A stretch of DNA of 64,000 nt from Candidatus Cloacimonadales bacterium (GCA_963663475.2 CAXXJV010000001.1:1440001-1504000); one strand, 5' to 3'; shown: positions 9,513 through 39,200, counted from the first letter of the stretch. A program made the numbers and translations. The notes: a model not told the origin generated them from the sequence alone.

Positions 9513-11066
9513 ATGTCAGCTACCTTACAGAAAATTCAAGAGCTTAAAGCTCGTGAAGCTAAAGTAGAAATGATGGGCGGTGAAGCTCAAGTAGCAAAAC
9601 AACATAATAGTGGAAAACTAACTGCAAGAGAGAGAATTAACCTCTTGTTTGATGCTGGAACTTTTAGAGAAATTGATAAATTTGTTGCTCATCGTTGCAC
9701 TAATTTCGGAATGCAAAAAGTAGATATTCCTTCTGATGGTGTGATAACAGGTCATGGATTAGTGAATGGCAGACCAGTATTTGCTTACTCACAAGATTTT
9801 ACTGCTAGAGCAGGTTCTCTTGGTGAAATGCATGCTGCTAAAATCACTAAAGTAATGGATATGGCTATGAAATCAGGTGTACCTGTAGTGGGTATGAATG
9901 ATTCAGGTGGAGCTCGTATCCAAGAAGGAATTGATGCTCTTAAAGGTTACGGTGATATATTCTTTAGGAATTCCAGAGCTTCTGGTGTAATACCTCAGAT
10001 TTCCTGTATCATGGGACCATGTGCTGGTGGAGCTGTGTATTCTCCAGCAATGACAGATTTTATCTATATGGTAAAAAATTCTTCCTTTATGTTCATTACT
10101 GGCCCAGATGTAATTAAAGCTGTGACAGGTGAGATGACAGATAAAGAAAGCTTAGGCGGAGCAATGGCTCATAATGAGTCTTCTGGAGTAGCTCATTTCG
10201 CTTGTGAAACTGATGAACATGCTATTAATTCTATCAAAGAACTCCTTTCTTTCCTTCCTAATAATAATATGGAAGAACCACCATATGTAGCAAGCTCTGA
10301 TCCTGCTCATAGAATCTGTGAAGACCTTAATACTATAATCCCTGATAATCCTAGCAAACCCTATGATGTAAAAGATATTATCAGATCTATTGCTGATGAT
10401 AGCCACTTCTATGAACCACATGAATACTATGCAAAGAATATTGTGATAGGTTTCATCAGACTCAATGGTAGGTCTGTTGGTATTATAGCTAACCAACCTA
10501 TGGTACTTGCTGGCTGTCTTGATATTGATGCCTCAGATAAAGCCTCTCGTTTCATTAGATTCTGTGATGCTTTCAATATCCCTCTTCTCTCAATAGTAGA
10601 TGTTCCAGGTTACTTACCTGGTGTACACCAAGAGCATAGTGGTATTATTAGACATGGTGCTAAATTGCTTTGGGTTTATTCTGAAGCTACAGTTCCTAAA
10701 TTAACTTTAGTTACTCGTAAGAACTATGGTGGCTCATATATAGCTATGTCTTCAAGACACTTAGGTGCGGATATGGTATTTGCATGGCCTACTGCTGAAA
10801 TTGCTGTTATGGGAGCTAAGGGTGCAGCTAATATTATCTATAGAAAAGATATTATGAAAGCTGAAGATCAAGATGCAAAAAGAGCTGAATGTATTAATGA
10901 ATACGAAGAACTATTCAATAACCCATACGTAGCTGCTTCACGTGGTTATGTTGACGCAATTATTGAACCTAAAGAAACTAGAATGAGACTCATTGAAGCT
11001 CTGGAAATTCTTTCTACAAAGAGTGAATCACTTCCTCCTAAAAAACATGGTAACCTTCCAGTATAG
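9513..11066 (+). CDS. Methylmalonyl-CoA/propionyl-CoA carboxyltransferase subunit (12S/MmdA/PccB-like)
   Basis: GKLTARERI, DSGGARIQEG, GPCAGGAVYSPA, RHGAKLL, C-terminal KKHGNLPV. Confidence 0.9.
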   Translation: MSATLQKIQELKAREAKVEMMGGEAQVAKQHNSGKLTARERINLLFDAGTFREIDKFVAHRCTNFGMQKVDIPSDGVITGHGLVNGRPVFAYSQDFTARAGSLGEMHAAKITKVMDMAMKSGVPVVGMNDSGGARIQEGIDALKGYGDIFFRNSRASGVIPQISCIMGPCAGGAVYSPAMTDFIYMVKNSSFMFITGPDVIKAVTGEMTDKESLGGAMAHNESSGVAHFACETDEHAINSIKELLSFLPNNNMEEPPYVASSDPAHRICEDLNTIIPDNPSKPYDVKDIIRSIADDSHFYEPHEYYAKNIVIGFIRLNGRSVGIIANQPMVLAGCLDIDASDKASRFIRFCDAFNIPLLSIVDVPGYLPGVHQEHSGIIRHGAKLLWVYSEATVPKLTLVTRKNYGGSYIAMSSRHLGADMVFAWPTAEIAVMGAKGAANIIYRKDIMKAEDQDAKRAECINEYEELFNNPYVAASRGYVDAIIEPKETRMRLIEALEILSTKSESLPPKKHGNLPV

Positions 11067-23968: not shown

Positions 23969-24719
23969 AACAAATATCCCTGTGAAGGGATAAATAGTTT
24001 AGCCCAGGGTAAAAGCCTGAAAGGCTTGCAACCTTGGGTAAGATGGCTTCCATCTTAGAAATTCCCTGTAAGGGATACATAAATAAAATTATCTAACAAA
24101 TAATGAATATTGAATTAATATTTTTTAATTAATATAAGGTGGTAATATCAATGGCACAGTCAGTATCTCAAATTTATATGCATCTTGTCTTTTCTACCAA
24201 GAATAGAGTACCTTTTTTCAAAAATTCTGATATTCGTGATCCATTATATTCATATATTGCCAAAATAATCTACGAAAATGATTCATATCCGATTTGTATT
24301 GGTGGGTCTGAAGATCATATCCATATTTTTTTCAATTTATCAAAGAATATTTGTTTTAAAGATATAATAGGAGAGATTAAGAGATCTACTTCTAAATTGA
24401 TAAAGACTAAGGGTGATGAATATTCAAACTTCTACTGGCAAGCTGGTTATGAAGGATTTTCTGTAGGTCAACAACAGAAGCAAAAAACAATCAATTATAT
24501 TAACAAGCAAAACGAACATCATAAAAAAGGCTCTCCAAGAAGAACTCAGAATGTTCATGACGAAAAACAAAATGAGAATCAATGAATGTTATTTGTGGGA
24601 TTAATTAATTTAACCCTTTCAGGGTAGAGGCTTTATTTATGCTGTCGTACCCAGGGTTGCAAGCCTTTCAGGCTTTTACCCTGGGCTAAACTATTTATCC
24701 CTTTACAGGGATATTTGTT
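23969..24719. mobile_element. IS200/RAYT-like tyrosine transposase locus flanked by 79-bp inverted repeats
   Basis: 23969-24047 and 24641-24719 are near-perfect inverted repeats containing CCTG(A/T)AAGG-type hairpins. Confidence 0.8.
24151..24604 (+). pseudogene. tnpA: IS200/IS605-family HUH Y1 transposase, apparently frameshifted near the 3' end
   Basis: HLVFSTKNR, DHIH (HUH), WQAGY, YINKQ..HH; the expected tail (LQEELRMF...YLWD*) lies in the +1 frame after the A6 run at 24523-24528. Confidence 0.7.
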
Positions 24720-24881
24720 AAATCACAATTTTAATGAAACATTCTGATTTACTTGAGTTATTTCCACCAAACATGAACTTGAGCCTAAAAAAAAGAAGAT
24801 AATAATCTATCCACAAATTATTTCGTGATGATTACAGAGATAGAACAGGTAATTTGAGAGTGAAAGCATCCTTGCTTATAG

Positions 24882-25259
24882 TCACGAATTCTTCTTCAAC
24901 GATTGCTTGACCAAACTCATGATATACTCAAAATCCTCATCATCTTTCAGATTAATCTCATAATCTCCATTTCCCTGATGTCCGACCTGAGAAACATCTC
25001 TCATTATCCCCTTAGGATCATCTAAGTCCCCCTTACGTAGATTAATAAAGAGCTTCAAAGATTTTCTCTGAATAGAAATATCCACAACATTAGTCTTAGA
25101 TACAAAGGCAATATAGAACTTCAAAACTTTGATTTCAATAGAATCAAGATTTAATATCATATTTTTTAATTTTTCATATAAAGCACAAAATTCTTCAGAA
25201 CCCTTGCTCAAATGGTCTTCCTCTCTATATACCTTTATTTCTTTATCAACAATATTACT
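24882..25259 (-). pseudogene. DUF5655-like domain, probably a 5'-truncated remnant
   Basis: KEIKVYREEDHL...KFYIAF...DVSQVGHQGNGDYE; upstream in-frame stop and no convincing start/RBS. Confidence 0.55.
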
Positions 25260-25345
25260 TTATTTATTGGTAGAAATGATGTTCACTAAATCACTAAAAT
25301 GGGTTTGAATTGTGTTCATAACAATCACTTCAGATTAGTAATTAT

Positions 25346-25945
25346 CTAATTTAAATCATTCTCCATAACAAATTTAGTTACTGTGAATCTATGAACTTTC
25401 AAATATCTGGCAATAGCACTAATAGATACTCCAGCTTCGACCATCTCTTTAATGATTTTCTCCTTCCCGGTGAGTTTAACTTTAGCAGATTTCCTGCCCT
25501 TAGGACGCCCTAAAATAACTCCTTCGGCTTTCTTTCTAGCAAGAGCTTCTTTAGTTCTTTGAGAAATCAAGTTTCTTTCAATCTCAGCTGCTAAGCCAAA
25601 AGCGAAAGCTAATACTTTGGAATTTATATCATTACCTAATCTATAATTGTCTTTAATTGTCCAGATATTAACCTCTTTTTTCATACAATCATTTAAAATA
25701 CTCATAATCATTAAAAGATTTCTACCTAAACGGGATAATTCAGTGCAAATTAAAATATCATCCGCTTTCATTTTATTTAACAACCTTCCTAATTTTCTTT
25801 TATTTACTTCCTTTGCCCCTGAAATAGTCTCTTCTATCCATTTATCAATTACAATATCTTTCTTTTTACAAAATTCTACTATCTCAAATCTCTGATTTTC
25901 GACTGTCTGTTTATCTGTACTCACCCTAATATAGCCATAAATCAT
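25346..25945 (-). CDS. Serine recombinase, DNA invertase type (Hin/Pin/Mpi-like)
   Basis: YGYIRVST catalytic Ser, ELSRLGR, AEIERNLISQRTKEAL, GRPKG, C-terminal HTH; AGGAG RBS. Confidence 0.92.
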   Translation of the reverse strand: MIYGYIRVSTDKQTVENQRFEIVEFCKKKDIVIDKWIEETISGAKEVNKRKLGRLLNKMKADDILICTELSRLGRNLLMIMSILNDCMKKEVNIWTIKDNYRLGNDINSKVLAFAFGLAAEIERNLISQRTKEALARKKAEGVILGRPKGRKSAKVKLTGKEKIIKEMVEAGVSISAIARYLKVHRFTVTKFVMENDLN

Positions 25946-26052
25946 TGTTATCTCCTACTAATATTTTAATAATGACAATTATTTAATTAATGAATAATTA
26001 ACAATAATAATTAATTACTAAGATTATAAAACAAGCGAAGATTAGTTTATAT

Positions 26053-26116
26053 GACCTATTTTACGTGGCAGGGATATTAAAAGATATAGAGCTGAATTTG
26101 CGGACTTGTGGTTGAT
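26053..26116 (+). repeat. Outer inverted repeat, left copy (64 bp perfect)
   Basis: Exact reverse complement of 28964-29027; encodes PILRGRDIKRYRAEFADLWL. Confidence 0.95.
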
Positions 26117-26297
26117 ATGCACTTTTCCGAGTAAACGAATTGATATAGAAAACTATCCAGCAGTTAAAAATTGGCTAAAATCTTTTGGACAAAGATTAGA
26201 ACAGACTGGAAAAAGTTATGAAGACTCAACTGGAAGACTAATAAAATGTAGAAAAAAAACAAATAATAAATGGTTTGAGACACAAGATAGTATAGGA

Positions 26298-26327
26298 TAT
26301 TGGGAGGAATTTAATAGACAGAAAATT
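26298..26327 (+). repeat. Inner inverted repeat, left copy (30 bp perfect)
   Basis: tattgggaggaatttaatagacagaaaatt = reverse complement of 28735-28764; encodes YWEEFNRQKI. Confidence 0.95.
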
Positions 26328-26436
26328 GTGTGGAAGGCAGTTGGTCGAAATCTAGGAATATCAATAGTAGATGCTGGGATATATTGTGTCGTTCCATAAA
26401 AGTGGACTAGAAAATTAAACAAACTAGGAGCTTGAA

Positions 26437-26859
26437 ATGGAAAGAAAAAAGAATATGACTCATAAGATTCAAAAGACCTATAGTGAAAGTTTTAAAATTA
26501 AAGTTGTTGACGAAATAGAGAAGGGAGATTTAACTCAAGCTGGAGCTTGTAGACTTTACAATATTTCAGATAGCAATGTGAGTAGATGGGTTGCCAATTA
26601 TGGTATGAATGAACGAGTGGGAAAAAAGGTGGTAGTTATGACCGATAGAGAAATACGTGAATCTGACCTTTTAAGGAAAGAGAATAAGCAGTTAAAACGA
26701 GCATTAGAAGATAGTCAGTTCTCCAACGAAGTTCTAGAGAAATATATTCATTATATTGCAGAACAAAATGGTATTGATTTAAAAAAAAAGATCGATTCAG
26801 GTTTATCAGAAGATACTCAGAAACTCTTGATTTCAAGGTTGCTAAAAGGTCAGGAATAA
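26437..26859 (+). CDS. IS3 transposase OrfA (HTH)
   Basis: YSESFKIKVV HTH start; A9G slippery site at 26781-26790. Confidence 0.88.
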   Translation: MERKKNMTHKIQKTYSESFKIKVVDEIEKGDLTQAGACRLYNISDSNVSRWVANYGMNERVGKKVVVMTDREIRESDLLRKENKQLKRALEDSQFSNEVLEKYIHYIAEQNGIDLKKKIDSGLSEDTQKLLISRLLKGQE

Positions 26860-27650
26860 GCCAAATGTGTAGTTTATTACAAGTATCTAAATCAGGTTAC
26901 TATAAATATCTTCAAACTGTCTCCCAGAGTTCTACAAATGACTCCCTATGTCTTTCCAGAGTTAAACAATATAGAAAAATTCAGCCTTATGCAGGCACTT
27001 ATAAATGTTGGAAAATGCTACATAATGATGGTTTTAAAATTGCGAGAAATCATCTTAACTGCCTGCTTAAAGAACATAATATGTTGATCAGGAAGAAGAA
27101 GAAATATTGCAAAACTTCAATATCAGATGGTAGTAAGGTATATCCTAATTTACTTAAAGATACCGAAGTAAAGAGGAAAAATCAAGTTTGGGTAACTGAT
27201 ATTACTTATATTTCTAAAGGCAAAGGGTTTTATTATTTGTTTTTGCTAAGTGATATGTATACTAGACAGATATTGGATTATGAAGTTTCTTCTAATATGT
27301 TGACTGATAATCATATAAGGATGTTAAAAAGACAGCTAAACTATGTTGATAATGCTAACGATCTTATTCATCATTCAGATCATGGTTCTCAATATACAAG
27401 TAATGAGACTATTAGCCTTCTGAAAAAGCATGGTATAAAGATTAGTATGACTGGTGATGGTAAATGCTATGATAACCCTATTGCTGAAAGAATAAACTGC
27501 ACAATGAAGCATGAATTTGGTTTAAATCGGACATTTAGCACTATAGAAAGTCTTAAAAAAGCTACTAAAGATGCAGTAATGATCTATAACTCTCAGAGAC
27601 TTCACAAAAGTTTGGGGTATTTTACTCCAAATGATTTTGCAAATCATTAA
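26781..27650 (+). CDS. IS3 transposase OrfB (DDE integrase core), -1 frame
   Basis: WVTDITY, HHSDHGSQY, DNPIAER, YN..RLHKSLGY; the -1 frame is open from the slippery site. Confidence 0.9.
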   Translation, partial: KKKDRFRFIRRYSETLDFKVAKRSGISQMCSLLQVSKSGYYKYLQTVSQSSTNDSLCLSRVKQYRKIQPYAGTYKCWKMLHNDGFKIARNHLNCLLKEHNMLIRKKKKYCKTSISDGSKVYPNLLKDTEVKRKNQVWVTDITYISKGKGFYYLFLLSDMYTRQILDYEVSSNMLTDNHIRMLKRQLNYVDNANDLIHHSDHGSQYTSNETISLLKKHGIKISMTGDGKCYDNPIAERINCTMKHEFGLNRTFSTIESLKKATKDAVMIYNSQRLHKSLGYFTPNDFANH

Positions 27651-28350
27651 AAGAGGTTACCAGATGATGAACAGATACTTAGCTGAATGTATTTTCTTTT
27701 GGAAAATGCGACTAAATTACGAATGCAAAATGGAGTCGACAAAAGAACTCAAAAGTATGAGTAAATGTCTCATTTTTCAAAAGAGATACATGACTCAGGA
27801 TACATAAAAAAGGTGTCCACTATATTGGTACTTGACATATTTATCAGCCCCAGCAGCTTTTATTACATCTAATTGCAATGAATACTTGTTAATGTTTCTT
27901 CTCAGTAATTTTAGTAAATATTACATATATAATCACTCAGATAAAACAGGAGCTGGAGATTTAATGCTCAATATACAATCTCTTATCAAGCTGCCAATTC
28001 CAATAATCTCAGAAGAAATTAATGATTACTTTGTAAAGTTGAATAGTCAAATCATTTCAAATTCTCATAACCTTGCTAATATTGAGATTTTTGTAAATGC
28101 TTTAATATATAAGCTATTCAATTTTAATAAAGAGGAAATTGATTTAATTGACATAGAATTTACAGATTGTTTAACAAGCTTGAAAATTAATTATAAACAA
28201 TATGAAAATATGAGTATTAAAGAAATTGCGCAATACTGCTCAGAATTTGATTATAGAAAAGAAAGTGATTATTATAACTCTTAAATCCCCAAAGGGGAGA
28301 ACTAATTTAGCCATTTTTGGAAATTAGTAGAGTTAAGACATAAGCTAATA

Positions 28351-31300
28351 TCATTTGTATGATTTCAGAAAGGATATATCTTCTTTTGACAACTTGTATA
28401 ATTGATTAATTTTAATATCAATTTCATTTTTGATTGTCATATTTTCATACTTACTTGCTAATGCATTAATATTCTGGGTAATTTCATTGATAATGCTCAT
28501 CGGTGCTTTATATACTGGCAATTTAACTAATGCATGTTTATTGTATTGGTATCCATTTACTCCTAGTTCAATACTGGAATATAATCTTTTGTATGCAAAT
28601 TGAAAAAGTCTTGAGTTAAGTGTCCCAAGTAAATATTCAGGATTTTCAGCTATTATCATGAAACAAGTTTTATCTATCATAAACTTATTATCATCTAATG
28701 CAAATTCAGCTTGCTGTACAGTCTCAGGATATATAATTTTCTGTCTATTAAATTCCTCCCAATAATTTGCACCCCACCTCTGCAAAGCGTACCATTCATA
28801 ACGTATTCCAGTCTCAGATTTGTTTCTATTAGATAGTTGTTCTTTGTAACTTAGTAAATGTCCATAAATAGCTGGATATTGCTCTTGAAAAGCTTGCTCA
28901 GCTATTGGAGAAGCTCCTTTTATATTTGGATCATTTTGTAGAGGAAAATGCCATGGTACATAGATCAACCACAAGTCCGCAAATTCAGCTCTATATCTTT
29001 TAATATCCCTGCCACGTAAAATAGGTCGTATAATTTCAGCAGATTTTGGGTCTTGTCTGATGAGTTCATCTTTCTTAGCTCCACTAATAATAAAGGCTTC
29101 ATTAAATCCTGTTAGAATTCCTCTATTAATGTTTACATCCCAATCTTTGAGGGGAGTACCTATTCTTTCAATTTTTTCTTTGATTCTCATTTCTTCTTGA
29201 GAAGAGATGATAAGGCTTTCTTTACTAAAATTATTGATTACTACAGTGTTTTCAACAAAATAATTGGATAGGTTGCTGTCTTTTAAATAATCTGATCCAA
29301 TAGTACAGGCTTGTAAATAGTGTTTATGGGTAATTTTCTTCTGAGAAAGCAAAATATTGGTATCAACTGTAGCAGAATCAAATACTTTGAAACCTCCAAA
29401 ATCTATTAGTTTAATTGGGTTAGTGTATTTCGCAAAATAATCGCGTAATTTCTCTCCATATTTCGCTCTCATCCATTTATTAGATGTTATGAAGCATAAT
29501 AAACCATATTCTGATAGTATTTGAACTCCTCTTTCATAAAAAATACAATATAGGTCTCCTGTTTTAGCAAAGGAGAGATATTTTTGATTTTCATAGGTTT
29601 CTTGAATTTTCTGACCTGATAGAGTTTGAATTTGAACATACGGTGGATTCCCAATCACAATATCAAAACCTCCATTTTCTTTAAAGACATCAGCGAAGTA
29701 GAGATGCCAGGGGAAGAAGGGTCTAATTTTATCTTTTTTAGTAAACTCGTGAAGTTGAGCTTCAAGTTCTTGGTAGTCAAACTTATATTTTTTCTTTAAC
29801 TGAGCACTTTCTGCTTGGATGTAAGCTTCTCTTTGTTCATGAGTAGGCAGTTGATTTGCAGTGGATATCATCTGATTATAGGCTTGGAAGTATTCTTCTT
29901 TGTCATTCTCAATGCGAGTTTTAAAGATTTTGACGATAGTATCTTCAATTTCATTGCGTAGGGATACTTTTTGGTTTTTATCATTTTCTTTGTAAAGTTT
30001 TTCTTGGAGGTAGTGAAGCTGATCAATCATCTGGTCTTCTTCTAAGAGTAAGGAGTTTTTATTTAATTGTGTAGCCAACTTCTTTTTATCGTTAGTTAGT
30101 GTTTTTTTCTGTTTTTCCAGAGCTTTAATTTGGTCTAAGAAGTCTTGATTTTGGACTGAAGTTTCAGTAAATTCTGCAAAGAACTTCTTTTGAATCATTT
30201 CTACTTGCTGGTTGATATCTGCGATTTTGTTTGTAATTTCTTCATCTTTTTTCTCAAGATCGGAGTACTTTGTTCTTACTTGATTAATATTGATATCCCC
30301 AAATGATTCAATGAGGGAGTTACCTTGCATGAACTTATAATCGAAGTTGGGGAGAGCTTCAGGTATTTCAGCATCAACCACAAGTGATAGCCAGAAACGG
30401 ATTTTAGCAATTTCGATAGCACCATTATCAATATCTACACCATAAATACATTTTTGAATTGTTTCTTTTTTAAGTTTATAGAGGCTAACATGTTCATTGA
30501 GAAATTGATCTTTAATGTAGGAACGAATAGAGACAATCTCGTGGAGGATTCCCATTGGGAAGGCACCTGAGCCAACAGCAGGGTCTGCAATCTTAATATT
30601 AACAAGTAGCTTGTTTACTTCTTCTACAATATCATAGAGTTCATCGAATTGCTTTTCAAATTCTTTTTCCTGTTCATCGTTAGCAAAGTCACCCTTGTTT
30701 AGATAGAGATCTTTATATTCAAAGAGGTGGTCTAGTTTCTCTTCGATATTTTCTTTATCCTGTAGTTTAGTAATCAAGAACTGTTTCAGACTTTCTCTTG
30801 TCATATAATTAACTATTTCTCGTGGAGTATAGAAAGCACCTTTACCTTTTCGGTTTATATCATCTAGTAAATTTTCAAAGACTTTACCCAGCATTTCCGG
30901 GTCGATGGCAATATCTTGTTCAAAGTAAGTATTTTCATCTATGGTGAAGTTATATTGATCAAAGATATCGAGAATACCTGTATTCTTATCATTGGAGAAA
31001 AGCTCATTACTTGGAGCAAAAATAATAGTCTCATCATATTCATAAGGGCATTCAAAGAGACCACCATTTAGATAAGGTATTTTTAAAAAAGCATCATTAA
31101 ATTTAAAGGAATCACCTACTTGGTTTAAACCTTCATAGAAGAGTTTTTCTAAGAACTTATCGAAATAATTATATCCCTCTTTTTGGCATTTTTTAAAACC
31201 CCAACGGAGGAAGTCTTGTCTGCCGTCTGTCCAATCATTGGTATTGCTAGGGTCTCCACCTAACCATCTTTTCTTTTGGAGGAAGTAAAGGAAGGTAATC

Positions 31301-31962
31301 TGACCTAATAATTTACGGGCAAAGATATCAGAGTTAAAGCCTTCGGTTTTAGACATTACTATTTTGAAGTTGTTAGACTTTTCAAACTCATTTATTACTA
31401 AATCATAGAGTTCTTTATATTTATTAAAGAACTCTTTGGTAACTGGTTCAACAGCAAATCTACCCACTAAATCAGCAAAATCTTTTATTTTTGCTGTTCC
31501 GTTTATCTGTTTAGCTTTTACTAATTTATCAAAGAGTGTTCCTAGTTTAGCTTCATTTCCCAAGAGATAGGAATAACGTCTGGGATTTGAGAAAAATTTC
31601 TTAGTCTTTTTATTATCTAATTCTAAATCTATTGTTATCAAGGATAGTCTATAGTTGGCTAAATTAGCTGATGTAAAGAAAACTATGGCTCTATTCTTAT
31701 TGAAAGTAGCTAATATTTTGAAGGCATCACGGGAGATAGTAACACGAGGGTCATTTTCAGAATCATGATGCATCTCAAAAACAGCTAAATCTAAGACTTT
31801 TGAACTTCCTAATAAAGTAACTTGATTTATCTTATTAGCTTTGAAAGATAATTGATCAGTTACATCTTGGATATCTATTTCAAAATCATCTGGTAATAAA
31901 TATGTTTTTAAAAAATCTAAATATTTATCTCTATTGTATTTTTCACTGAATAATGAAATCAT
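28351..31962 (-). CDS. Type IIG/Eco57I-like N6-adenine DNA methyltransferase with C-terminal TaqI-like target-recognition region
   Basis: GAFYTPREIV, motif I DPAVGSGAF, motif IV GNPPY, ITSNKWMRA, RGRDIKRY. Confidence 0.9.
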   Translation of the reverse strand: MISLFSEKYNRDKYLDFLKTYLLPDDFEIDIQDVTDQLSFKANKINQVTLLGSSKVLDLAVFEMHHDSENDPRVTISRDAFKILATFNKNRAIVFFTSANLANYRLSLITIDLELDNKKTKKFFSNPRRYSYLLGNEAKLGTLFDKLVKAKQINGTAKIKDFADLVGRFAVEPVTKEFFNKYKELYDLVINEFEKSNNFKIVMSKTEGFNSDIFARKLLGQITFLYFLQKKRWLGGDPSNTNDWTDGRQDFLRWGFKKCQKEGYNYFDKFLEKLFYEGLNQVGDSFKFNDAFLKIPYLNGGLFECPYEYDETIIFAPSNELFSNDKNTGILDIFDQYNFTIDENTYFEQDIAIDPEMLGKVFENLLDDINRKGKGAFYTPREIVNYMTRESLKQFLITKLQDKENIEEKLDHLFEYKDLYLNKGDFANDEQEKEFEKQFDELYDIVEEVNKLLVNIKIADPAVGSGAFPMGILHEIVSIRSYIKDQFLNEHVSLYKLKKETIQKCIYGVDIDNGAIEIAKIRFWLSLVVDAEIPEALPNFDYKFMQGNSLIESFGDININQVRTKYSDLEKKDEEITNKIADINQQVEMIQKKFFAEFTETSVQNQDFLDQIKALEKQKKTLTNDKKKLATQLNKNSLLLEEDQMIDQLHYLQEKLYKENDKNQKVSLRNEIEDTIVKIFKTRIENDKEEYFQAYNQMISTANQLPTHEQREAYIQAESAQLKKKYKFDYQELEAQLHEFTKKDKIRPFFPWHLYFADVFKENGGFDIVIGNPPYVQIQTLSGQKIQETYENQKYLSFAKTGDLYCIFYERGVQILSEYGLLCFITSNKWMRAKYGEKLRDYFAKYTNPIKLIDFGGFKVFDSATVDTNILLSQKKITHKHYLQACTIGSDYLKDSNLSNYFVENTVVINNFSKESLIISSQEEMRIKEKIERIGTPLKDWDVNINRGILTGFNEAFIISGAKKDELIRQDPKSAEIIRPILRGRDIKRYRAEFADLWLIYVPWHFPLQNDPNIKGASPIAEQAFQEQYPAIYGHLLSYKEQLSNRNKSETGIRYEWYALQRWGANYWEEFNRQKIIYPETVQQAEFALDDNKFMIDKTCFMIIAENPEYLLGTLNSRLFQFAYKRLYSSIELGVNGYQYNKHALVKLPVYKAPMSIINEITQNINALASKYENMTIKNEIDIKINQLYKLSKEDISFLKSYK
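28735..28764 (-). repeat. Inner inverted repeat, right copy (inside MTase CDS)
   Basis: Reverse complement of 26298-26327. Confidence 0.95.
28964..29027 (-). repeat. Outer inverted repeat, right copy (inside MTase CDS)
   Basis: Reverse complement of 26053-26116. Confidence 0.95.
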
Positions 31963-32336
31963 TTTTTCTCCTTATAGGGTAAATTAATTCTTGAATTAGT
32001 TAAGACCTTAAGTTGATCAATAACTATTTTGTTAAGTAATAGAAGTCTTTCCTGAGCAGGAATATTTTCTTCAATATATATGACATTAGCATTAGAACCA
32101 GCTTGGTTTCTAAAGGTGTCGAATTCGACCCCTTTAAAACTAGGATTATGTAATTTCTCCCATAAACCCAAAAACTCAATTGTATTTTTACTCCTTAGCC
32201 AGTTTTTTACAACATCTTTAGGTTCATCTGGATTTTTATATCTTGCAATATCTGTTAATGATATGTAACTATTATTATCAAGACCCTTAATTTTAACCTC
32301 AATATTAAATACTTCTATAACCTTTGTTTTAGCCAA
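31959..32336 (-). CDS. KilA-N domain DNA-binding protein (short, possibly internally deleted)
   Basis: YISLTDIARYK, NWLRSKNTIEFLGLWE.LHNP.FKGVEFD; stop overlaps the MTase start (ATGA). Confidence 0.75.
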   Translation of the reverse strand: MAKTKVIEVFNIEVKIKGLDNNSYISLTDIARYKNPDEPKDVVKNWLRSKNTIEFLGLWEKLHNPSFKGVEFDTFRNQAGSNANVIYIEENIPAQERLLLLNKIVIDQLKVLTNSRINLPYKEKK

Positions 32337-32347
32337 ATCTCCCCCTA

Positions 32348-35300
32348 TTAAAACTCTTCTGCTAAGATTAGTCTTTCCTTACCATCATTAACACTAGTGG
32401 ATTTTTTTATAATTCTCTCAAGATATTGATGAGGTACTTCTTCTTTGAATTCTTCTATGTCATCTTTAAGTGTTTTTTTATCAAAAGCTCTAATCAATTT
32501 AGCAAATCTATCTGGTAAGCCATCAAGAGATTCTAAAACTACTAATAAGTCATCTAAATAGTCCTTATCTTCATTAAGCATTGATTTGATAACTTTTAAT
32601 TTGTCAATAGCTTGTCTTCTTCCTTTATCACTTGCTAATTCACTCTTCTTAATAAAGAGTTTTTCTTTAATTTTCTGATAGATATTATCAAAATTATTTG
32701 TTACAGATAAGCTTGATTCTTCAACTTCAGCCTCAAAGAGTTGAAAAGCATCTTTAACACTTAAAGAGACTACTTCCTTACCATCTGATGAGAATTTAAA
32801 GGTGTATTCATCACCTTTACTTCCAAAGACAATCACTCCACTGCTTTTACTTGCTGATCTTCTTATTCTTGTTCTATGAGGTATTTCTTTAGACTTTTCT
32901 ATGACCTCTGGATTAGTAAGCTTGAGTTTATTATAGAAATCTAAATATTCTGCATCCCAAGATACTTGTTCCTGATTGGCAAACTCTTTTTCATATTGTT
33001 TTGCATAAAAGGACTCAAGTGTTTCATCAGGAGTAAGGATTTTTGTATCACTTCCTAAAATTGCTTGAATAACAGCTAATTTTAAGGTTGAAATTTGCTT
33101 AGTTCTTACATGCTGAGCTCCAATGTCAGTGGGGAAGTAGTTATAGATATATAGTTTTTCAAAGACTTTCTTATCTATTCTGTTAATTCGTCCTACTCTT
33201 TGAATCACTCTTGTAGGATTATAAGGAATATCATAGTTGAAAATAGTACCTGCTCTATGGAGATTATAACCTTCAGATATAGAATCAGTAGCTACCAAGA
33301 TATCGAAGTCATTTTTTTGTGCATTCTTGTAACTGGCATCAAAGTTTTCTTTAATAATTTCTTTGTTATTCTTACTAGCTTCACTACCAGAGTATTTGAA
33401 TATTCTAAACTCATCTTTTAAGCTTTTATAGAGATATTGGGCTGTATCATTGAATTCAGTGAAAATAACTATTTTCCTATTTGGTTCACTGGCTAACTGA
33501 TTCTTGATTATCTCTTTGAAATGGTCAAGCTTGGGGTCTGTTTTGACCTTTTTCCACTCTTCTTGAATGGATTTCAAGAGGTCTATATCACTTCTCAAGT
33601 CTCTTGCAAAACTAACTTTTATTTCATTGGCTTCAATAATCATTAACCCTTTTTCATAGTATTTTTGCAGTTGACCCTCAAAAGTGAAATTAAATAATTC
33701 TTCCGATATATCATCACCCATATCATCCATGAGAGAATCTACATCAGGTAGTTTACCCTTTTTATAAATGGGGACTTTATGAAGTCTATCATGCCAATCT
33801 AGGATTAACTCAAAAGATTTAATCATATTCTCTAAAGAATTCATAAAGGCTTGGAAAGAACTTTCAAAACGTCTGACTAATAAATGCTTCATAAATTTAG
33901 CAATATTCATTTGAGATTTTCTAAAGAGGTTTATATCTCCAAACTCTTTAGTGATCTTCTCTTTATATTTATCATAATCTTTTAAATAAGATACTGGTTT
34001 ATACCTTGCACCCTCTAATCCCTTGCCTTTATCTTCTGTAGAGATTATTTTCAAGGTTTTAAGATAAAGTTCACTAAGACTACCCAGATTATATTCTTGC
34101 ACAATTGGGTCATGAACCTGTGAGTAAGAAATATTTTGATGGTCTAAATCTAGGCGATACTTTTCAATCTTTTCTAAATCAATTCTACTCCTTCTAATTA
34201 AAACAGGGGATAGTATATCTCTGATCTTATCAGAAAGTTCATTAATGCGTCTTTTTAATTCAACCTCATTAATAGAACTATCTTTCTGTTTTTTTTGGAT
34301 ATTTTTATATTCAATAATTAGGCTTTTAAACTGTAATGCTAAGTTATCAACTGTTTGAATTGTTGTCTTCGAGGGAAGTTGAAACAATTTAATCATAGAA
34401 AAGATGTCTTGAGGTCTGTTATTAAAAGGTGTTGCTGTAAGTAGTATAACCTTATTCCCTTGGCAAAGCTGATGAAGCATTCCGTAGTCTCGAGTCATTT
34501 CATTTCTATACTTGTGGGCTTCATCGATTATGATTAGTTTCTCTTCAGTAAAGTCGTTATCTTTCAAAGCATCTTCAATTTTTCCACTACTATATACTTT
34601 TGCTCTAAAATCGAACTCATACCAATAATCATTCCATTGTTCCACCAGATGAGGAGGGGCAATGATAACTGCTTTTCTTCTTAGATTATAGGCAATTGCT
34701 GAAGCTATAATACTTTTTCCTAAACCTACAACATCAGAGATAATTACTCCATTGTGTTTTTTGATTATGTCTAATCCTCTATGTAAAGCATCTGTTTGAT
34801 ATTCTAAATCAAAGTATGCTTCATCAGTAATCTGTGAGGGAAGTTTTATGTTATTATCTTTCTTAAGTGAAAAGTATTCATCTAAGACTCTGACATACAT
34901 AATGAATGGTTTTGGTAACTTTTCAAACCAAATCTTTTCAACTACACTTTCCAAAAAGTCAGCCAGGTTATTTTTACTTACTATATCAATTCCTGTTTCC
35001 CATAGCTCATCAAATAGTTTTTTCCCTTGATTATATGTTTTATCTCTAAAAATTGTATTGATTTCACCTTGGCCGTAGAGTCCTGATCTAGTTAGATTAC
35101 TAGAACCAGTTATCATTGTTCCAGGGAAACTTCCACCTTGATTATGTTCAGGTATCGCTTGGAAAAGATAGAGCTTCGAGTGATTTGGTTTTAGTGTTTT
35201 CCTAATCTCAAGACTTCCATTTTTTATTTTTTCTATAAATAGTTTGAATGATCTCTGCTTGTCTTCAGAATCAAAGAAATCACTATCATTGAAGAATTTA

Positions 35301-35572
35301 ACAAAATTCTCATTATATTCTCTTCTTATTTGGCTTTTAGATTTTTCAATATTTTCCACAAGCTCGAACTCTCTAAATTTGTTGAGAATGTTCTTTTCAA
35401 TGTCAAGACCTACAAGTATTTTTATCTCTTTATCTATGATCTCATCAGAAATTTCACTAAAACCAGAATAATAAAAATATCCTACTAAAACAAATAGCTT
35501 GTCTGTTGAAGGTAATATTTTACATATTTCATCACCAAGTTTTTGTTCATGATTTGTAATTAAATCAGCCAT
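32348..35572 (-). CDS. PLD-nuclease domain + SF2 (SNF2-like) helicase
   Basis: VGYFY, HSKLYL...GSSNLT (PLD-like), DVVGLGKS, DEAH, LTATP, SEGYNL, QRVGRINR; GGAG RBS before ATG at 35572. Confidence 0.88.
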   Translation of the reverse strand: MADLITNHEQKLGDEICKILPSTDKLFVLVGYFYYSGFSEISDEIIDKEIKILVGLDIEKNILNKFREFELVENIEKSKSQIRREYNENFVKFFNDSDFFDSEDKQRSFKLFIEKIKNGSLEIRKTLKPNHSKLYLFQAIPEHNQGGSFPGTMITGSSNLTRSGLYGQGEINTIFRDKTYNQGKKLFDELWETGIDIVSKNNLADFLESVVEKIWFEKLPKPFIMYVRVLDEYFSLKKDNNIKLPSQITDEAYFDLEYQTDALHRGLDIIKKHNGVIISDVVGLGKSIIASAIAYNLRRKAVIIAPPHLVEQWNDYWYEFDFRAKVYSSGKIEDALKDNDFTEEKLIIIDEAHKYRNEMTRDYGMLHQLCQGNKVILLTATPFNNRPQDIFSMIKLFQLPSKTTIQTVDNLALQFKSLIIEYKNIQKKQKDSSINEVELKRRINELSDKIRDILSPVLIRRSRIDLEKIEKYRLDLDHQNISYSQVHDPIVQEYNLGSLSELYLKTLKIISTEDKGKGLEGARYKPVSYLKDYDKYKEKITKEFGDINLFRKSQMNIAKFMKHLLVRRFESSFQAFMNSLENMIKSFELILDWHDRLHKVPIYKKGKLPDVDSLMDDMGDDISEELFNFTFEGQLQKYYEKGLMIIEANEIKVSFARDLRSDIDLLKSIQEEWKKVKTDPKLDHFKEIIKNQLASEPNRKIVIFTEFNDTAQYLYKSLKDEFRIFKYSGSEASKNNKEIIKENFDASYKNAQKNDFDILVATDSISEGYNLHRAGTIFNYDIPYNPTRVIQRVGRINRIDKKVFEKLYIYNYFPTDIGAQHVRTKQISTLKLAVIQAILGSDTKILTPDETLESFYAKQYEKEFANQEQVSWDAEYLDFYNKLKLTNPEVIEKSKEIPHRTRIRRSASKSSGVIVFGSKGDEYTFKFSSDGKEVVSLSVKDAFQLFEAEVEESSLSVTNNFDNIYQKIKEKLFIKKSELASDKGRRQAIDKLKVIKSMLNEDKDYLDDLLVVLESLDGLPDRFAKLIRAFDKKTLKDDIEEFKEEVPHQYLERIIKKSTSVNDGKERLILAEEF

Positions 35573-35696
35573 GCACACTCCAAGTAATAAGTTTAGTGTC
35601 ATATAATACAAGTATTAAAAATTAATCAAGAAAAAAAATAGCTAAAAATTATTCTACTAAAAATAAAAGTCACCTTGTATCTACCTATTCGTCGGT

Positions 35697-35751: not shown

Positions 35752-35775
35752 TTGACAGATTGACGTATTTGTCAA
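35752..35775 (+). promoter_or_regulatory. Putative ars promoter -35 with overlapping palindromic operator
   Basis: TTGACAgat...atttGTCAA inverted repeat immediately upstream of arsR. Confidence 0.5.
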
Positions 35776-35801
35776 ACTTGAAATCAAAAGGAGATTTTAC
35801 T

Positions 35802-36134
35802 ATGGGATATTCAAAAGAAAAGTATGAGATGTTAGCAGATATCTTAAAGGCTGCTGCTCATCCAGTTAGACTTTATATTTTAGAGACTTTAGCTGAGCGT
35901 AAGCTTTGTGTAAAGGAGTTTGCTGATGAATTAGGTTTTGATATATCAACAATATCAAAACACTTAACACAGATGAAGAAGAGTGGATTAATTTATGATT
36001 ATCGGGAAGGTAATTGTGTTTATTATAATATCAGATGCGATTGTGTTGCTCGGTTTTTAGCTGCTTCTAAAGATATTTTAATTACTAATTTGGAGAGAGA
36101 TAGACAGTTAATGACTAGGTTGGAGGACAAATGA
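35802..36134 (+). CDS. arsR: ArsR/SmtB family transcriptional regulator
   Basis: KAAAHPVRL.IL, LCV, STISKHL, REG..VYY; heads the ars cluster. Confidence 0.85.
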   Translation: MGYSKEKYEMLADILKAAAHPVRLYILETLAERKLCVKEFADELGFDISTISKHLTQMKKSGLIYDYREGNCVYYNIRCDCVARFLAASKDILITNLERDRQLMTRLEDK

Positions 36135-37426
36135 CCTGGAAAAAAGAGATAAAGATTTTATTGTTAATGATTGCTGTATTTTTAGTTTCCTTTAATTTAC
36201 CAGTTGATTCAGCACGTTTTCAAAACGCAGTAATGGAGTCTTTTCATCTCCTTAAGGAGTATGCTCAACTTCATGTTATATTATGCTTATTACCAGCTCT
36301 TTTTATAGCAGGTGCAATTGGTGTATTTATATCACAAAATGCAGTTATGAAATACTTGGGAGCCAAAGCTAAACGGGTAGTCGCATATTCAGTTGCTGCT
36401 GTTTCTGGTTCAATTTTAGCAGTTTGTTCCTGTACTATTCTCCCTCTCTTTAGTGGTATTTACAAACGAGGTGCAGGCTTAGGACCAGCAACAGCATTTT
36501 TATATTCTGGGCCAGCTATTAATATTTTGGCTATTATTCTCACAGCAAGAATTTTAGGCCTGGAGATGGGTATTGCTAGAGCAGTAGGGGCAATAGTTTT
36601 TAGTATAGTTATAGGTCTGCTTATGGGTTTTATTTTCCGCAAGGAAGAGAAGGCAAAAGCAGATATTCAAATGCAGATGCCAGATGTTGAAGCAGATAGG
36701 CCTTTATGGCATAATATGATTTTCTTTGGTTCAATGATTATGATTTTAGTATTTGCAAACTGGGCAAAACCAGCTGTTGAGTCAGGACTTTGGTATGCTA
36801 TCTATAATGTAAAATGGATTGTAACTTCAATCTTTGCTATTGCTTTAGGAGTTATTCTAGTAAGTTTATATGAAATGAAGGTTTGGAAAATGGGTCTAGT
36901 AGCCTTAGCAGTGGTAATTGCAGGTTTCTTAACTTCATGGCAACCTTTAATCCCTTTTGTTGTAGGAATTATCGGTTTATCTTATTTTACTAGTAAAGAT
37001 GAAGATGAGGCTGGAGAGTGGTTTGAATCCACTTGGGAGTTTGCCAAGCAAATTTTACCCTTGCTTTTCTTTGGTGTATTAGTTGCTGGCTTACTTTTAG
37101 CTAGACCAGGTCAAGAAGGTTTAATTCCTTCAGAATGGATTTCAAGCTTAGTAGGAGGAAACTCTGTATTTGCCAATTTCTTTGCCTCTATTGTGGGTGC
37201 CTTTATGTATTTCGCAACTCTGACAGAAGTCCCAATTATTCAAGGATTAATGGGAAATGGAATGGGAAAAGGTCCTGCTTTAGCACTCTTACTAGCTGGT
37301 CCAGCCTTATCACTACCTAATATGCTTGTGATAAGAAGTGTGATGGGAACCAAAAAGACCCTTGTTTTTGTCTCATTGGTAGTAGTTATGGCTACAATAT
37401 CTGGTTTGATCTTTGGGAAAATTTAG
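36131..37426 (+). CDS. ArsP/DUF318-type permease
   Basis: VCSCTILPLF, FLYSGPAIN, YFATLTEVP, GPALSLP. Confidence 0.8.
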   Translation: MTWKKEIKILLLMIAVFLVSFNLPVDSARFQNAVMESFHLLKEYAQLHVILCLLPALFIAGAIGVFISQNAVMKYLGAKAKRVVAYSVAAVSGSILAVCSCTILPLFSGIYKRGAGLGPATAFLYSGPAINILAIILTARILGLEMGIARAVGAIVFSIVIGLLMGFIFRKEEKAKADIQMQMPDVEADRPLWHNMIFFGSMIMILVFANWAKPAVESGLWYAIYNVKWIVTSIFAIALGVILVSLYEMKVWKMGLVALAVVIAGFLTSWQPLIPFVVGIIGLSYFTSKDEDEAGEWFESTWEFAKQILPLLFFGVLVAGLLLARPGQEGLIPSEWISSLVGGNSVFANFFASIVGAFMYFATLTEVPIIQGLMGNGMGKGPALALLLAGPALSLPNMLVIRSVMGTKKTLVFVSLVVVMATISGLIFGKI

Positions 37427-37456
37427 AAAGTATAAACATAAAAAAAAGGAGAAAGG

Positions 37457-37690
37457 ATGATTATTAAAGTATTAGGCACAGGTTGTGCTAAGTGTAAGAA
37501 ACTAGAAGAAGAAGCTAGGAAAGCAGTTGCTGAATCAGGAATTGAAGCTAGTGTGGAAAAGGTTACAGATTTGAATGATATTATGGCTTATAACGTGATG
37601 ATGACTCCTGCCTTGGTAATTGATGAAAAGGTGGTTTCAGCGGGAAGAGTCTTATCTGCCAAGAAAATTATAGCATTTTTACAAGGATAA
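37457..37690 (+). CDS. Small redox-active disulfide protein (thioredoxin family)
   Basis: IKVLGTGCAKC, MMTPALVID. Confidence 0.85.
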   Translation: MIIKVLGTGCAKCKKLEEEARKAVAESGIEASVEKVTDLNDIMAYNVMMTPALVIDEKVVSAGRVLSAKKIIAFLQG

Positions 37691-37700
37691 GAGGGATTAT

Positions 37701-38087
37701 ATGAAAAAAGTACTCTTTCTCTGCACAGGTAACTCATGTCGTAGTCAAATGGCTCAGGGATTTATGCAAGAGTATGCAGGGTATGAAGCTTTTTCTGCTG
37801 GAACAAAACCAGCAGAAAGAGTTAATCCCAAGGCAATAATAGTTATGCAAGAGCTGGGAATAGATATTTCAACCCATAGACCAAAGTTAGTTGATGAGTA
37901 TTTGGATCAAGAATTTGATTATGTAATAACAGTCTGTGATTCAGCTAAAGAGTCTTGCCCAGTATTCACTGGTAAAGTAAAGAATCGACTACATATAAGT
38001 TTCCAAGATCCAGATGGATATGATTTAGATAAATTTAGAGAAGTACGCGATTTAATTGCTGAGGCTATTAAAAACTTAGCTAAATAA
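37701..38087 (+). CDS. arsC: Arsenate reductase (LMW-PTP fold)
   Basis: CTGNSCRSQMA, VITVCD..ESCPVF, DP. Confidence 0.88.
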   Translation: MKKVLFLCTGNSCRSQMAQGFMQEYAGYEAFSAGTKPAERVNPKAIIVMQELGIDISTHRPKLVDEYLDQEFDYVITVCDSAKESCPVFTGKVKNRLHISFQDPDGYDLDKFREVRDLIAEAIKNLAK

Positions 38088-38096
38088 GGAGATAAA

Positions 38097-39200
38097 ATGA
38101 GCCAAATGTGCCAGGTAAGTCAGAAAAAGTTTGAGGGGCAAGAATTAAATATTTTTGAGAAATATTTAACTTTCTGGGTTTTTCTCTGTATAGGAATAGG
38201 GATAACTTTAGGGAAAGTGATTCCTGCAGTTGCAATAACTTTAGATTCATGGTCAGTATATCAAATATCACTACCAATAGCTATCTGTCTTTTCTTTATG
38301 ATGTACCCAATCATGGTTAAAATAGATTTTGGGCAAGTCATAAAGGCTGGTAAGACACCCAAGCCTGTTATTCTTACTTTATTGATAAACTGGCTAATTA
38401 AACCTTTTACTATGTTTTTTATTGCAAGTTTCTTTTTAACCCTTTTCCATAAGTATGGTTTTATATTCGGAAGAGAGATTTTGAAGAATGGACAAGAAGT
38501 TGACCTGTATAGAAGTTATATTTCGGGAGCTATACTCTTAGGAATTGCTCCCTGTACTGCAATGGTCTTAGTTTGGTCTTGGTTAGCTAAAGGTAACATG
38601 GGGCATACCCTAATTATGGTAGCAATAAATTCATTAACTATGCTTGTTTTATATGCTCCTTTAGGTGGATACTTGCTTGGTGAAAACCAAATGCCGATAC
38701 CCTGGCAGACAATTGTTTTATCAGTTTTGATTTATGTTGCTCTTCCTTTAGTGTCAGGTTATTTTTCCCGCAAATGGATTATTAATCATAAAGGTAGAGA
38801 ATTTTTTGAAAGAAAATTTGTTCCAAAACTAGGCAGAGTTTCAATTATTGCCTTGTTAACCACACTGATTCTTCTATTTTCATTTAAAGGAGAAGTGATT
38901 ATAAAACAACCTCTTACAATTATTTGGATTGCTATTCCACTTTTTATTCAGACTATACTTATTTTTGTAATTGGCTACATTTTAGCTAAAGTTTTTAAAC
39001 TGTCTTATGATAATGCAGCCCCAGTTGCAATGATTGGGGCCTCAAATCATTTTGAAGTAGCAATAGCAACTTCAACAATGCTCTTTGGTCTATCCTCTGG
39101 GGCTTCTCTTGCTACTGTGGTAGGTGTGTTAATCGAAGTACCAGTAATGCTCTTGCTAGTAAAAGTTTGCTTGAAAACAAAATTCCTTTTTAATAAATAA
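38097..39200 (+). CDS. acr3: Acr3-family arsenite efflux transporter
   Basis: [44 protein letters not shown]. Confidence 0.92.

Follow-up and report, generated by a model that had tools for sequence, protein, structure and literature searches.

A probable nested-inversion switch in the recognition domain of a single-chain DNA methyltransferase from a Cloacimonadales bacterium

We analyzed a window of 64,000 nucleotides from a genome of Candidatus Cloacimonadales bacterium (GCA_963663475.2, CAXXJV010000001.1:1440001-1504000; coordinates below are counted from the first letter of this window) and, within it, the segment from 25346 to 31962, where the 3' end of a DNA methyltransferase gene faces an inverted, partial second copy of itself that lies beside a gene for a small serine recombinase. 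The locus is very probably a programmed-inversion switch, or shufflon, that acts on the recognition domain of a methyltransferase belonging to a two-gene, restriction-like system. Two nested pairs of inverted repeats at conserved peptides, the family assignment of the recombinase, the opposite orientation of the same segment in a congeneric genome and the recurrence of the arrangement in other phyla carry this reading; an insertion sequence (IS) now interrupts the silent copy and restricts the alleles that a switch of this kind could produce.

RESULTS

Nested inverted repeats and their cassettes

The outer inverted repeat (26047-26116 on the plus strand, in the silent copy, and 28964-29033 on the minus strand, within the expressed gene) is 70 nt long, is complementary at 69 of 70 positions, and includes the perfect repeat of 64 nt that an initial annotation of this DNA had described. 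The inner repeat (26298-26327, plus strand, silent copy; 28735-28764, minus strand, expressed gene) is complementary at all 30 positions, again as annotated. In 200 first-order Markov simulations of the interval 24500-32500, the longest exact inverted repeat had a mean length of 13.7 nt and a maximum of 20 nt, compared with the 64 nt that were found there, and the outer repeat has exactly two copies in the 3.3-Mb genome, both of them at this locus. Both outer arms encode PILRGRDIKRYRAEFADLWLI and both inner arms encode YWEEFNRQKI, in frame in both copies, which bears out the earlier observation that the repeats share a reading frame and coincide with conserved linker peptides.

The repeats divide the end of the expressed gene and its silent counterpart into two cassettes each. 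In the expressed gene, A1 (28765-28963, minus strand; 66 codons) lies between the repeats, and B1 (28351-28734, minus strand; 127 codons plus stop) forms the 3' end of an open reading frame (ORF) of 1203 aa. The silent copy has an open frame from 26055 on the plus strand, without a start codon or a methyltransferase body; A2 (26117-26297, plus strand; 60 codons) runs in frame between the repeats, and the frame then continues from the inner repeat through the 5' piece of B2 (26328-26384, plus strand) to a stop at 26399, inside the IS, beyond which the 3' piece of B2 (27841-28284, plus strand) closes at its own stop codon. The sequence between the repeats is divergent, as first noted: A1 and A2 are unrelated, with 15 identities, or 23% of the longer length (66 aa). 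The start-less spare 3' end that had been placed at 26053-28284 is therefore real, but it is not continuous, because the IS occupies 26385-27837; removal of the IS and of one copy of its target duplication restores a single uninterrupted frame, 257 codons long, that extends from the outer repeat as far as the stop.

Inversion in silico yielded ORFs of 1203 aa for A1B1 (as assembled), 1099 aa for A1B2, 1093 aa for A2B2 and 1197 aa for A2B1; without the IS, the corresponding lengths were 1203, 1242, 1236 and 1197 aa. The proposed fusions are in frame at their junctions in all four alleles, but the two B2 alleles are not intact: because the IS splits B2, A1B2 and A2B2 are truncated, stopping 23 codons past the inner repeat, and only A1B1 and A2B1 are full length at present.

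The IS (26385-27837, plus strand; 1453 bp) has every feature of the IS3 family that was tested, namely orfA (Pfam HTH_Tnp_1) and orfB (rve), terminal inverted ends of the TG...CA type (TGTGTCG...TTGACA), a 3-bp target duplication (TAT, at 26382-26384 and 27838-27840) and multiple genomic copies. Its transposase scores 235.8 bits against NCBIfam transpos_IS3 (cut-off, 160), and a run of nine A residues lies within the orfA/orfB overlap. Eight full-length copies at 99% identity or more, matching query positions 1-1453 exactly, are present in the genome, and a 3-bp duplication flanks six of the eight. The IS is present in all three isolate sequencing runs; a contig from a microbial-mat metagenome run (X1) joins 26380 to 27837 and is thus free of the IS, differing at four other letters in about 930 nt and so representing a near-identical strain. 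The preserved duplication, the match of at least 99% to the other seven copies and the survival of an IS-free site in a near-identical strain indicate that the insertion is recent. The last 44 nt of the element (positions 1410-1453) also stand alone, at 98 to 100% identity, in at least 10 other places in the genome; they may represent isolated ends of this element or an end that it has in common with another.

The methyltransferase, its partner and the recombinase

The expressed gene (28351-31962, minus strand) encodes an N6-adenine DNA methyltransferase of 1203 aa (Pfam Eco57I, 126.5 bits; TaqI_C, 55.6 bits), in which an N-terminal domain is followed by a helical HsdM/MmeI-like domain, a gamma-class methyltransferase core with an NPPY motif and a TaqI_C recognition domain. 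The TaqI_C match spans residues 980-1150 and covers both repeats, A1 and most of B1, so that the candidate exchange sites fall within a single recognition domain. The top PADLOC model was REase_MTase_IIG (Type IIG restriction enzyme-methyltransferase; 547.8 bits), and methyltransferase and recognition domain reside in one polypeptide, as in Type IIG enzymes. A structural model of the C-terminal part (residues 741-1203; predicted local distance difference test [pLDDT] score, 87.5) matched CamA-DNA (7lni; E 2.4e-32) best among PDB entries, followed by M.BseCI, M.TaqI, PglX of the bacteriophage exclusion (BREX) system (8c45; E 9.7e-17) and MmeI. In the model of the N-terminal part (pLDDT, 79.1), residues ~171-393 are similar to the helical N-terminal domain of MmeI, PglX and HsdM (Z 7-9), and residues 8-168 gave only weak matches to restriction-endonuclease-like folds, at Z 3.9-5.2 (BpuSI 3s1s, Z 5.2, root mean square deviation 8.3, 204 aligned; 9y1l, Z 5.2; 3ijm, Z 3.9). 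Foldseek returned no match at E≤0.001 for the N-terminal 440 residues, and no acidic/lysine catalytic pair was present among the invariant alignment columns of the methyltransferase homologues.

Upstream of the methyltransferase lies a gene (32348-35611, minus strand) for a protein of 1087 aa that combines a PLD(HKD) nuclease with an SNF2-type helicase (Pfam PLDc_2, SNF2-rel_dom, ResIII and Helicase_C; in PADLOC, DrmD at 114.7 bits and "HKD+Snf2" at 105.2 bits). This protein is presumably the restriction partner of the methyltransferase, and its PLD domain is more likely to be the nuclease than the methyltransferase chain is.

The recombinase gene (25346-25945, minus strand) encodes a serine DNA invertase of the Mpi family (199 aa; Pfam Resolvase, 123.7 bits, plus HTH_38) that has the N-terminal serine motif YIRVSTDKQ and a C-terminal HTH_38 domain at residues 164-193. 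It scores 339.8 bits against NCBIfam NF009949 ("master DNA invertase Mpi family"), well over the equivalog cut-off of 272, and lies 101 nt from the nearest 70-nt outer arm, in agreement with the Hin/Mpi-like serine recombinase that had been recognized just outside the outer repeat. A search of its own genome at E≤1e-5 found no second homologue, the only match being the invertase itself.

Evidence of past inversion in congeneric genomes

Evidence that the segment has inverted comes from a congener (G006) whose syntenic locus comprises an invertase, a spare cassette, a 1102-aa methyltransferase and a helicase, with no IS, and whose nested repeats fall on the same peptides (70 nt at 97% and 38 of 38 nt). 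The flanks of the two loci are collinear, with DNA identities of 78% for the recombinase, 76% for the methyltransferase body and 84% for the arsR flank, and the segment between the outer repeats has the opposite orientation in the two genomes. Accordingly placed matches cross between silent and expressed copies: the silent interval 26047-26327 (repeat-A2-repeat) matches the expressed gene of the congener at 94.3% over 281 nt, and the expressed interval 28502-29033 (B1-A1-repeat) matches its silent cassette at 82.4% over 534 nt. A1 and the silent A cassette of the congener share 65 of 66 aa (88.4% DNA identity), A2 and its expressed A cassette share 57 of 60 aa (95.6% DNA identity), B1 and its silent B cassette are 54% identical in amino acids, and the constant methyltransferase bodies are 42% identical in amino acids. 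On this comparison, the difference in orientation represents an inversion at some time since the two genomes diverged.

The repeat arms themselves are more alike within a genome (69 of 70 here; 97% of 70 and 38 of 38 in the congener) than between genomes (66 of 70, 65 of 70 and 28 of 30), a pattern suggesting that the arms have continued to exchange sequence. Identity between a metagenome contig (L100) and the congener is 96% up to and including the final base of the inner repeat, after which the contig has an unrelated B half, so that the inner repeat is likewise a natural breakpoint. In the X1 metagenome run, a contig at 26333 carries the inner repeat and six further bases, followed by 255 nt that resemble neither B1 nor B2 and represent another B-type half from that community. 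A second congener (G004) has a methyltransferase that is 81% identical, with an unrelated recognition domain, and has no spare cassette, repeats or invertase; a related methyltransferase without the switch implies that the switch is dispensable.

Recurrence in other genomes and in metagenomes

The initial annotation had put forward, as a check, a search of other genomes for the same synteny of methyltransferase, inverted cassette and serine invertase, and the arrangement does recur in several phyla. Among 80 loci drawn from 588 relatives, a PLD-SNF2 helicase homologue lies directly upstream of the methyltransferase at 67 of the 75 that could be assessed. Fifty-six loci have at least 1.5 kb of downstream sequence; an inverted partial methyltransferase ORF is present at 8 of these, an Mpi-like invertase (259-333 bits) at 8, and both at 7, the loci with cassette and invertase belonging to Bacteroidota, Ignavibacteriota and one Woesebacteria metagenome-assembled genome (MAG). 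The remaining 24 of the 80 have less than 1.5 kb downstream, and at 11 of the 80 no more than 2 nt separate the end of the methyltransferase frame from that of the contig. Switches of this type may be prone to interrupt assembly, and the frequency of 7 in 56 is therefore probably an underestimate.

Nesting recurs as well. An inner repeat lies on a YW..F...KI motif at five loci (L019, L022, L023, L027 and L089); an outer pair around it is clear in L019, L022 and L027 and weak in L089, and none was found in L023. Three repeat tiers are present at some surveyed loci. The motif itself occurs at 5 of 9 loci with an invertase and 3 of 71 without one, numbers too small for a test of inner-repeat DNA conservation beyond the peptide. 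In a Prevotella MAG (L071), an inverted repeat of 48 nt at 94% (8374-8421 and 10486-10533) lies on the catalytic GFDIVIGNPPY motif and is followed by two large silent cassettes, so that exchange there would replace far more of the methyltransferase than at the locus studied here.

At 80 metagenome loci selected solely because they encode an A2-type cassette, an invertase is present at 57, and the cassette is expressed at 29, silent at 17 and unassignable, owing to short contigs, at 34. In full-length proteins of other organisms, A2-type halves are joined to B1-, B2- and B3-like halves (nine C termini, compared by eye), and a fourth B type is joined to an A2-type half in the metagenome contig L100.

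Neighboring genes

Between the helicase and methyltransferase genes lies a truncated KilA-N domain gene (31959-32336, minus strand; 125 aa; Pfam KilA-N, 33.3 bits) that covers positions 1-84 of the 281 in PADLOC profile PDC-S22. Its counterpart in G004 (L018, 11496-12329, minus strand) encodes 277 aa, and G006 has none; it has the look of an accessory gene that became inserted in the operon and has lost part of its sequence in this genome. Downstream of the invertase, 24139-24585 (plus strand) holds an IS200-like Y1 transposase gene, and 24882-25211 (minus strand) encodes a 109-aa DUF5655 fragment that matches only the last third of the PADLOC candidate PDC-S18; the region 24139-25211 is the edge of a decaying defense island. 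On its other side, the helicase gene is directly flanked by an arsenic-resistance cluster (35760-39200) that encodes an ArsR-type regulator, an ArsP-type permease, a low-molecular-weight phosphatase/ArsC-like protein and an ACR3/SBF transporter, the arsR flank being kept in G006. The flanking ORFs as a whole comprise ars genes, Lon, an AMP-binding enzyme, an Omp85 protein and transposases.

The spacer between the convergent 3' ends (28273-28312) contains a short element with a CCCC-AAA-GGGG hairpin region. Its depth in the isolate runs is about double, and contigs enter other sequence on both sides of it, which indicates that it is repeated elsewhere in the genome.

DISCUSSION

How the switch would work

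We suggest that the neighboring Mpi-family invertase recombines either the outer or the inner pair of repeats, so that inversion at the outer pair would exchange A and B together, inversion at the inner pair would exchange B only, and the two in combination would exchange A only. A constant body of 980 residues would thereby be joined in frame to A1B1, A1B2, A2B2 or A2B1, and the change of allele would alter the motif that is methylated and restricted, the pair of PLD-SNF2 protein and methyltransferase probably serving in defense. The later insertion of an IS3 element into the silent B2 would have altered this scheme: the only other full-length form now reachable would be A2B1, by two inversions through a truncated intermediate, and the single-inversion forms, which lack the second half of the recognition domain, would probably constitute an OFF state. 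The orientation of the segment in G006, the breakpoint in L100 and the wide recurrence of the arrangement argue that this architecture has been selected and has inverted.

Several observations weigh against this interpretation. The orientation difference from G006 dates an inversion to any time after divergence and gives no rate. No strand-changing joint was found among Logan contigs from three isolate runs and one metagenome run, although contigs of this kind neither extend past the repeat arms nor retain minority forms and are thus uninformative about the frequency of inversion. A recombinase-binding motif common to the outer and inner repeats was not established, and a scan of 25200-28500 for promoters and terminators was at chance, with 20 promoter-like sites against 18.4 expected and no terminators. 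Finally, the neighborhood is decaying, as seen in the IS insertion, the truncated KilA-N gene and the nearby DUF5655 fragment, and the switch may for this reason no longer be under selection.

Alternative explanations

The switch might serve mainly to regulate genes through alternative genome-wide methylation, as a phasevarion, rather than to defend against phages. Phase-variable methyltransferases are known as epigenetic regulators from published accounts that deal with Type I systems and gut bacteria; the nuclease/helicase gene that precedes the methyltransferase at 67 of 75 loci argues instead for restriction, and we consider a chiefly regulatory role rather unlikely, while noting that the two roles are not mutually exclusive.

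It is improbable that the locus is a frozen relic, in which an ancestral switch has no meaningful rate of inversion in the present strain, A1B1 is simply expressed and the IS marks decay. Such a state would fit the presence of the IS in the silent cassette in every isolate run, the gene remnants nearby (a KilA-N protein that has 125 aa where that of G004 has 277, and the DUF5655 fragment), the lack of an alternative junction in contigs, which break at the arms, and the 81%-identical methyltransferase of G004 that does without cassette, repeats or invertase. It is difficult to reconcile with an invertase ORF that is intact and scores above its equivalog cut-off, with two repeat pairs that are perfect or nearly so, and with the recent date of the IS insertion.

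Very improbable is a role for the repeats of 64 and 30 nt as substrates of RecA-dependent homologous recombination or of gene conversion, with the invertase incidental or directed at another target, since, although no binding consensus common to both repeat pairs was established and some identity is to be expected from protein constraint on repeats that overlie conserved peptides (many homologues carry RGRDIKRY...DLWLI), 30 nt is short for efficient RecA-dependent exchange, the invertase is the sole one of its kind in the genome, and, across phyla, 7 of the 8 genome loci that have an inverted cassette also have the invertase, as do 57 of the 80 metagenome loci. The 16-fold enrichment of Mpi-family serine recombinases beside inversion targets, given in the relevant part of the report by Milman, Yelin and Kishony (2023; PMC9881135), points the same way.

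Implications of a probable programmed-inversion switch

If the locus is, as we favor, a programmed-inversion switch, it is a clearly bounded case in which a single-chain methyltransferase, working with a nuclease-helicase on a separate chain, switches its specificity. With the repeats inside one recognition domain, a comparison of locked A1B1 and A2B1 forms would reveal which TaqI-type half reads which bases. With the IS in place, what would have been a switch among four specificities becomes one that mixes a choice of specificity with ON/OFF control and has to pass through truncated intermediates, and a switch broken in this way is a natural test of tolerance to the loss of methylation.

A more tentative proposal, which we think possible but would not yet favor, is that the repeat tiers cut one TaqI-type domain into independently assorting halves, each reading a separate part of the target, and that these halves may move between species. 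Two species with only 42% protein identity in their methyltransferase bodies have A segments at 88 to 96% DNA identity, and cassettes so much better conserved than the rest of the gene point to cassette exchange between species. If this were true, the natural A-by-B mosaics would amount to a combinatorial specificity code for single-chain methyltransferases.

Relation to known systems

The locus resembles the Hin, Gin, Cin, Min and Mpi systems in that a small serine recombinase with a C-terminal helix-turn-helix adjoins an invertible segment, and it shares nested or alternative multiple sites with Min and other shufflon-like systems; the targets of those recombinases are flagellin promoters, tail-fiber genes or polysaccharide promoters, whereas here the target would be the recognition domain of a methyltransferase. 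It would work in the manner of the invertible hsdS loci of Type I R-M systems (pneumococcal SpnIII/ivr, Bacteroides fragilis and Mycoplasma pulmonis), in which specificity genes are present as silent partial copies, the repeats fall on conserved linkers that separate half-domains, and combination of the parts yields alleles with altered methylation specificity. Those loci have a separate S subunit with two recognition domains, and Type I hsdS inversion loci mostly use tyrosine recombinases; the locus studied here has one TaqI_C-type domain fused to the methyltransferase and a small serine invertase. It was not classed as a Type I hsdS inverton, no S-subunit domain having been found by Pfam, which placed the TaqI_C domain in the methyltransferase chain.

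Other assignments were considered and rejected. The methyltransferase scores 69.5 bits against the NCBIfam BREX-1 PglX model (cut-off, 500), and DrmD of the defense island system associated with restriction-modification (DISARM) gave 147.4 bits (cut-off, 610); no partner genes of either system (BrxC/PglZ; DrmA/DrmB/DrmC) were found among the flanking ORFs, to which, rather than to the whole genome, this check was confined. The BREX-related "BR" systems are centered, in the description given in PMC12839542, on DUF499, which is not in the locus, and the portion of the study by Furuta et al. (2010; PMC2853133) that concerns Type IIG recognition domains deals with their allelic diversity and not with inversion.

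A closer parallel is the BREX type 1 PglX locus of Lacticaseibacillus rhamnosus, for which the corresponding section of PMC9881135 describes nested inversions with unstable one-inversion intermediates. Both are single-chain methyltransferases of the same superfamily that undergo, or would undergo, nested inversion, and one-inversion intermediates are nonfunctional in L. rhamnosus and now, because of the IS, probably at the locus studied here as well. According to that section, inversion exchanges a middle part of PglX, and the recombinase gene is located within the segment that inverts, in contrast to the C-terminal end that would be exchanged here.

The nearest precedent comes from the same work, whose passages on restriction-modification (RM) report programmed inversions, confirmed by long reads, in 11 loci of Type II RM enzymes. 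The targets are defined there as "Type II RM enzymes homologous to Cj0031" (Campylobacter jejuni) with a PLD+SNF-helicase coding sequence immediately upstream; an example is Bacteroides ovatus CP083813.1, 5322008-5329826. Matched by description only, those loci (methyltransferases of ~1100-1200 aa) and ours share the upstream PLD+SNF coding sequence and repeats that overlap the coding sequence, Mpi-family recombinases being enriched as neighbors there, and the features of that kind found here are an Eco57I plus TaqI_C methyltransferase, an adjoining PLD/SNF2 coding sequence, repeats over the coding sequence, an inverted partial paralogue and a recombinase. The published loci have coexisting long-read variants and homologues in three phyla, as set out in those passages; unlike them, our locus has a spare part that is split by an IS, and it may come from yet another phylum. 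Structural variants in methyltransferases or specificity units, 294 in number, also figure in the part of a 2025 preprint (PMC11741434) that treats long-read metagenomes of the gut. The two-tier serine-invertase switch within a single-chain methyltransferase that the initial annotation proposed is thus upheld by the repeats, the reading frames, the Mpi score, the span of TaqI_C and the orientation in G006, but its view of the arrangement as uncharacterized is not, since inversions in such methyltransferases beside PLD+SNF genes, with enrichment of Mpi-family recombinases, were already described in 2023, as far as the matching parts of that report go. The locus adds an instance to the type of inversion described then and does not change that picture; what sets it apart is a spare half interrupted by an IS, a segment that is reversed in a sister species, and A cassettes conserved far more strongly between species than the body of the gene.

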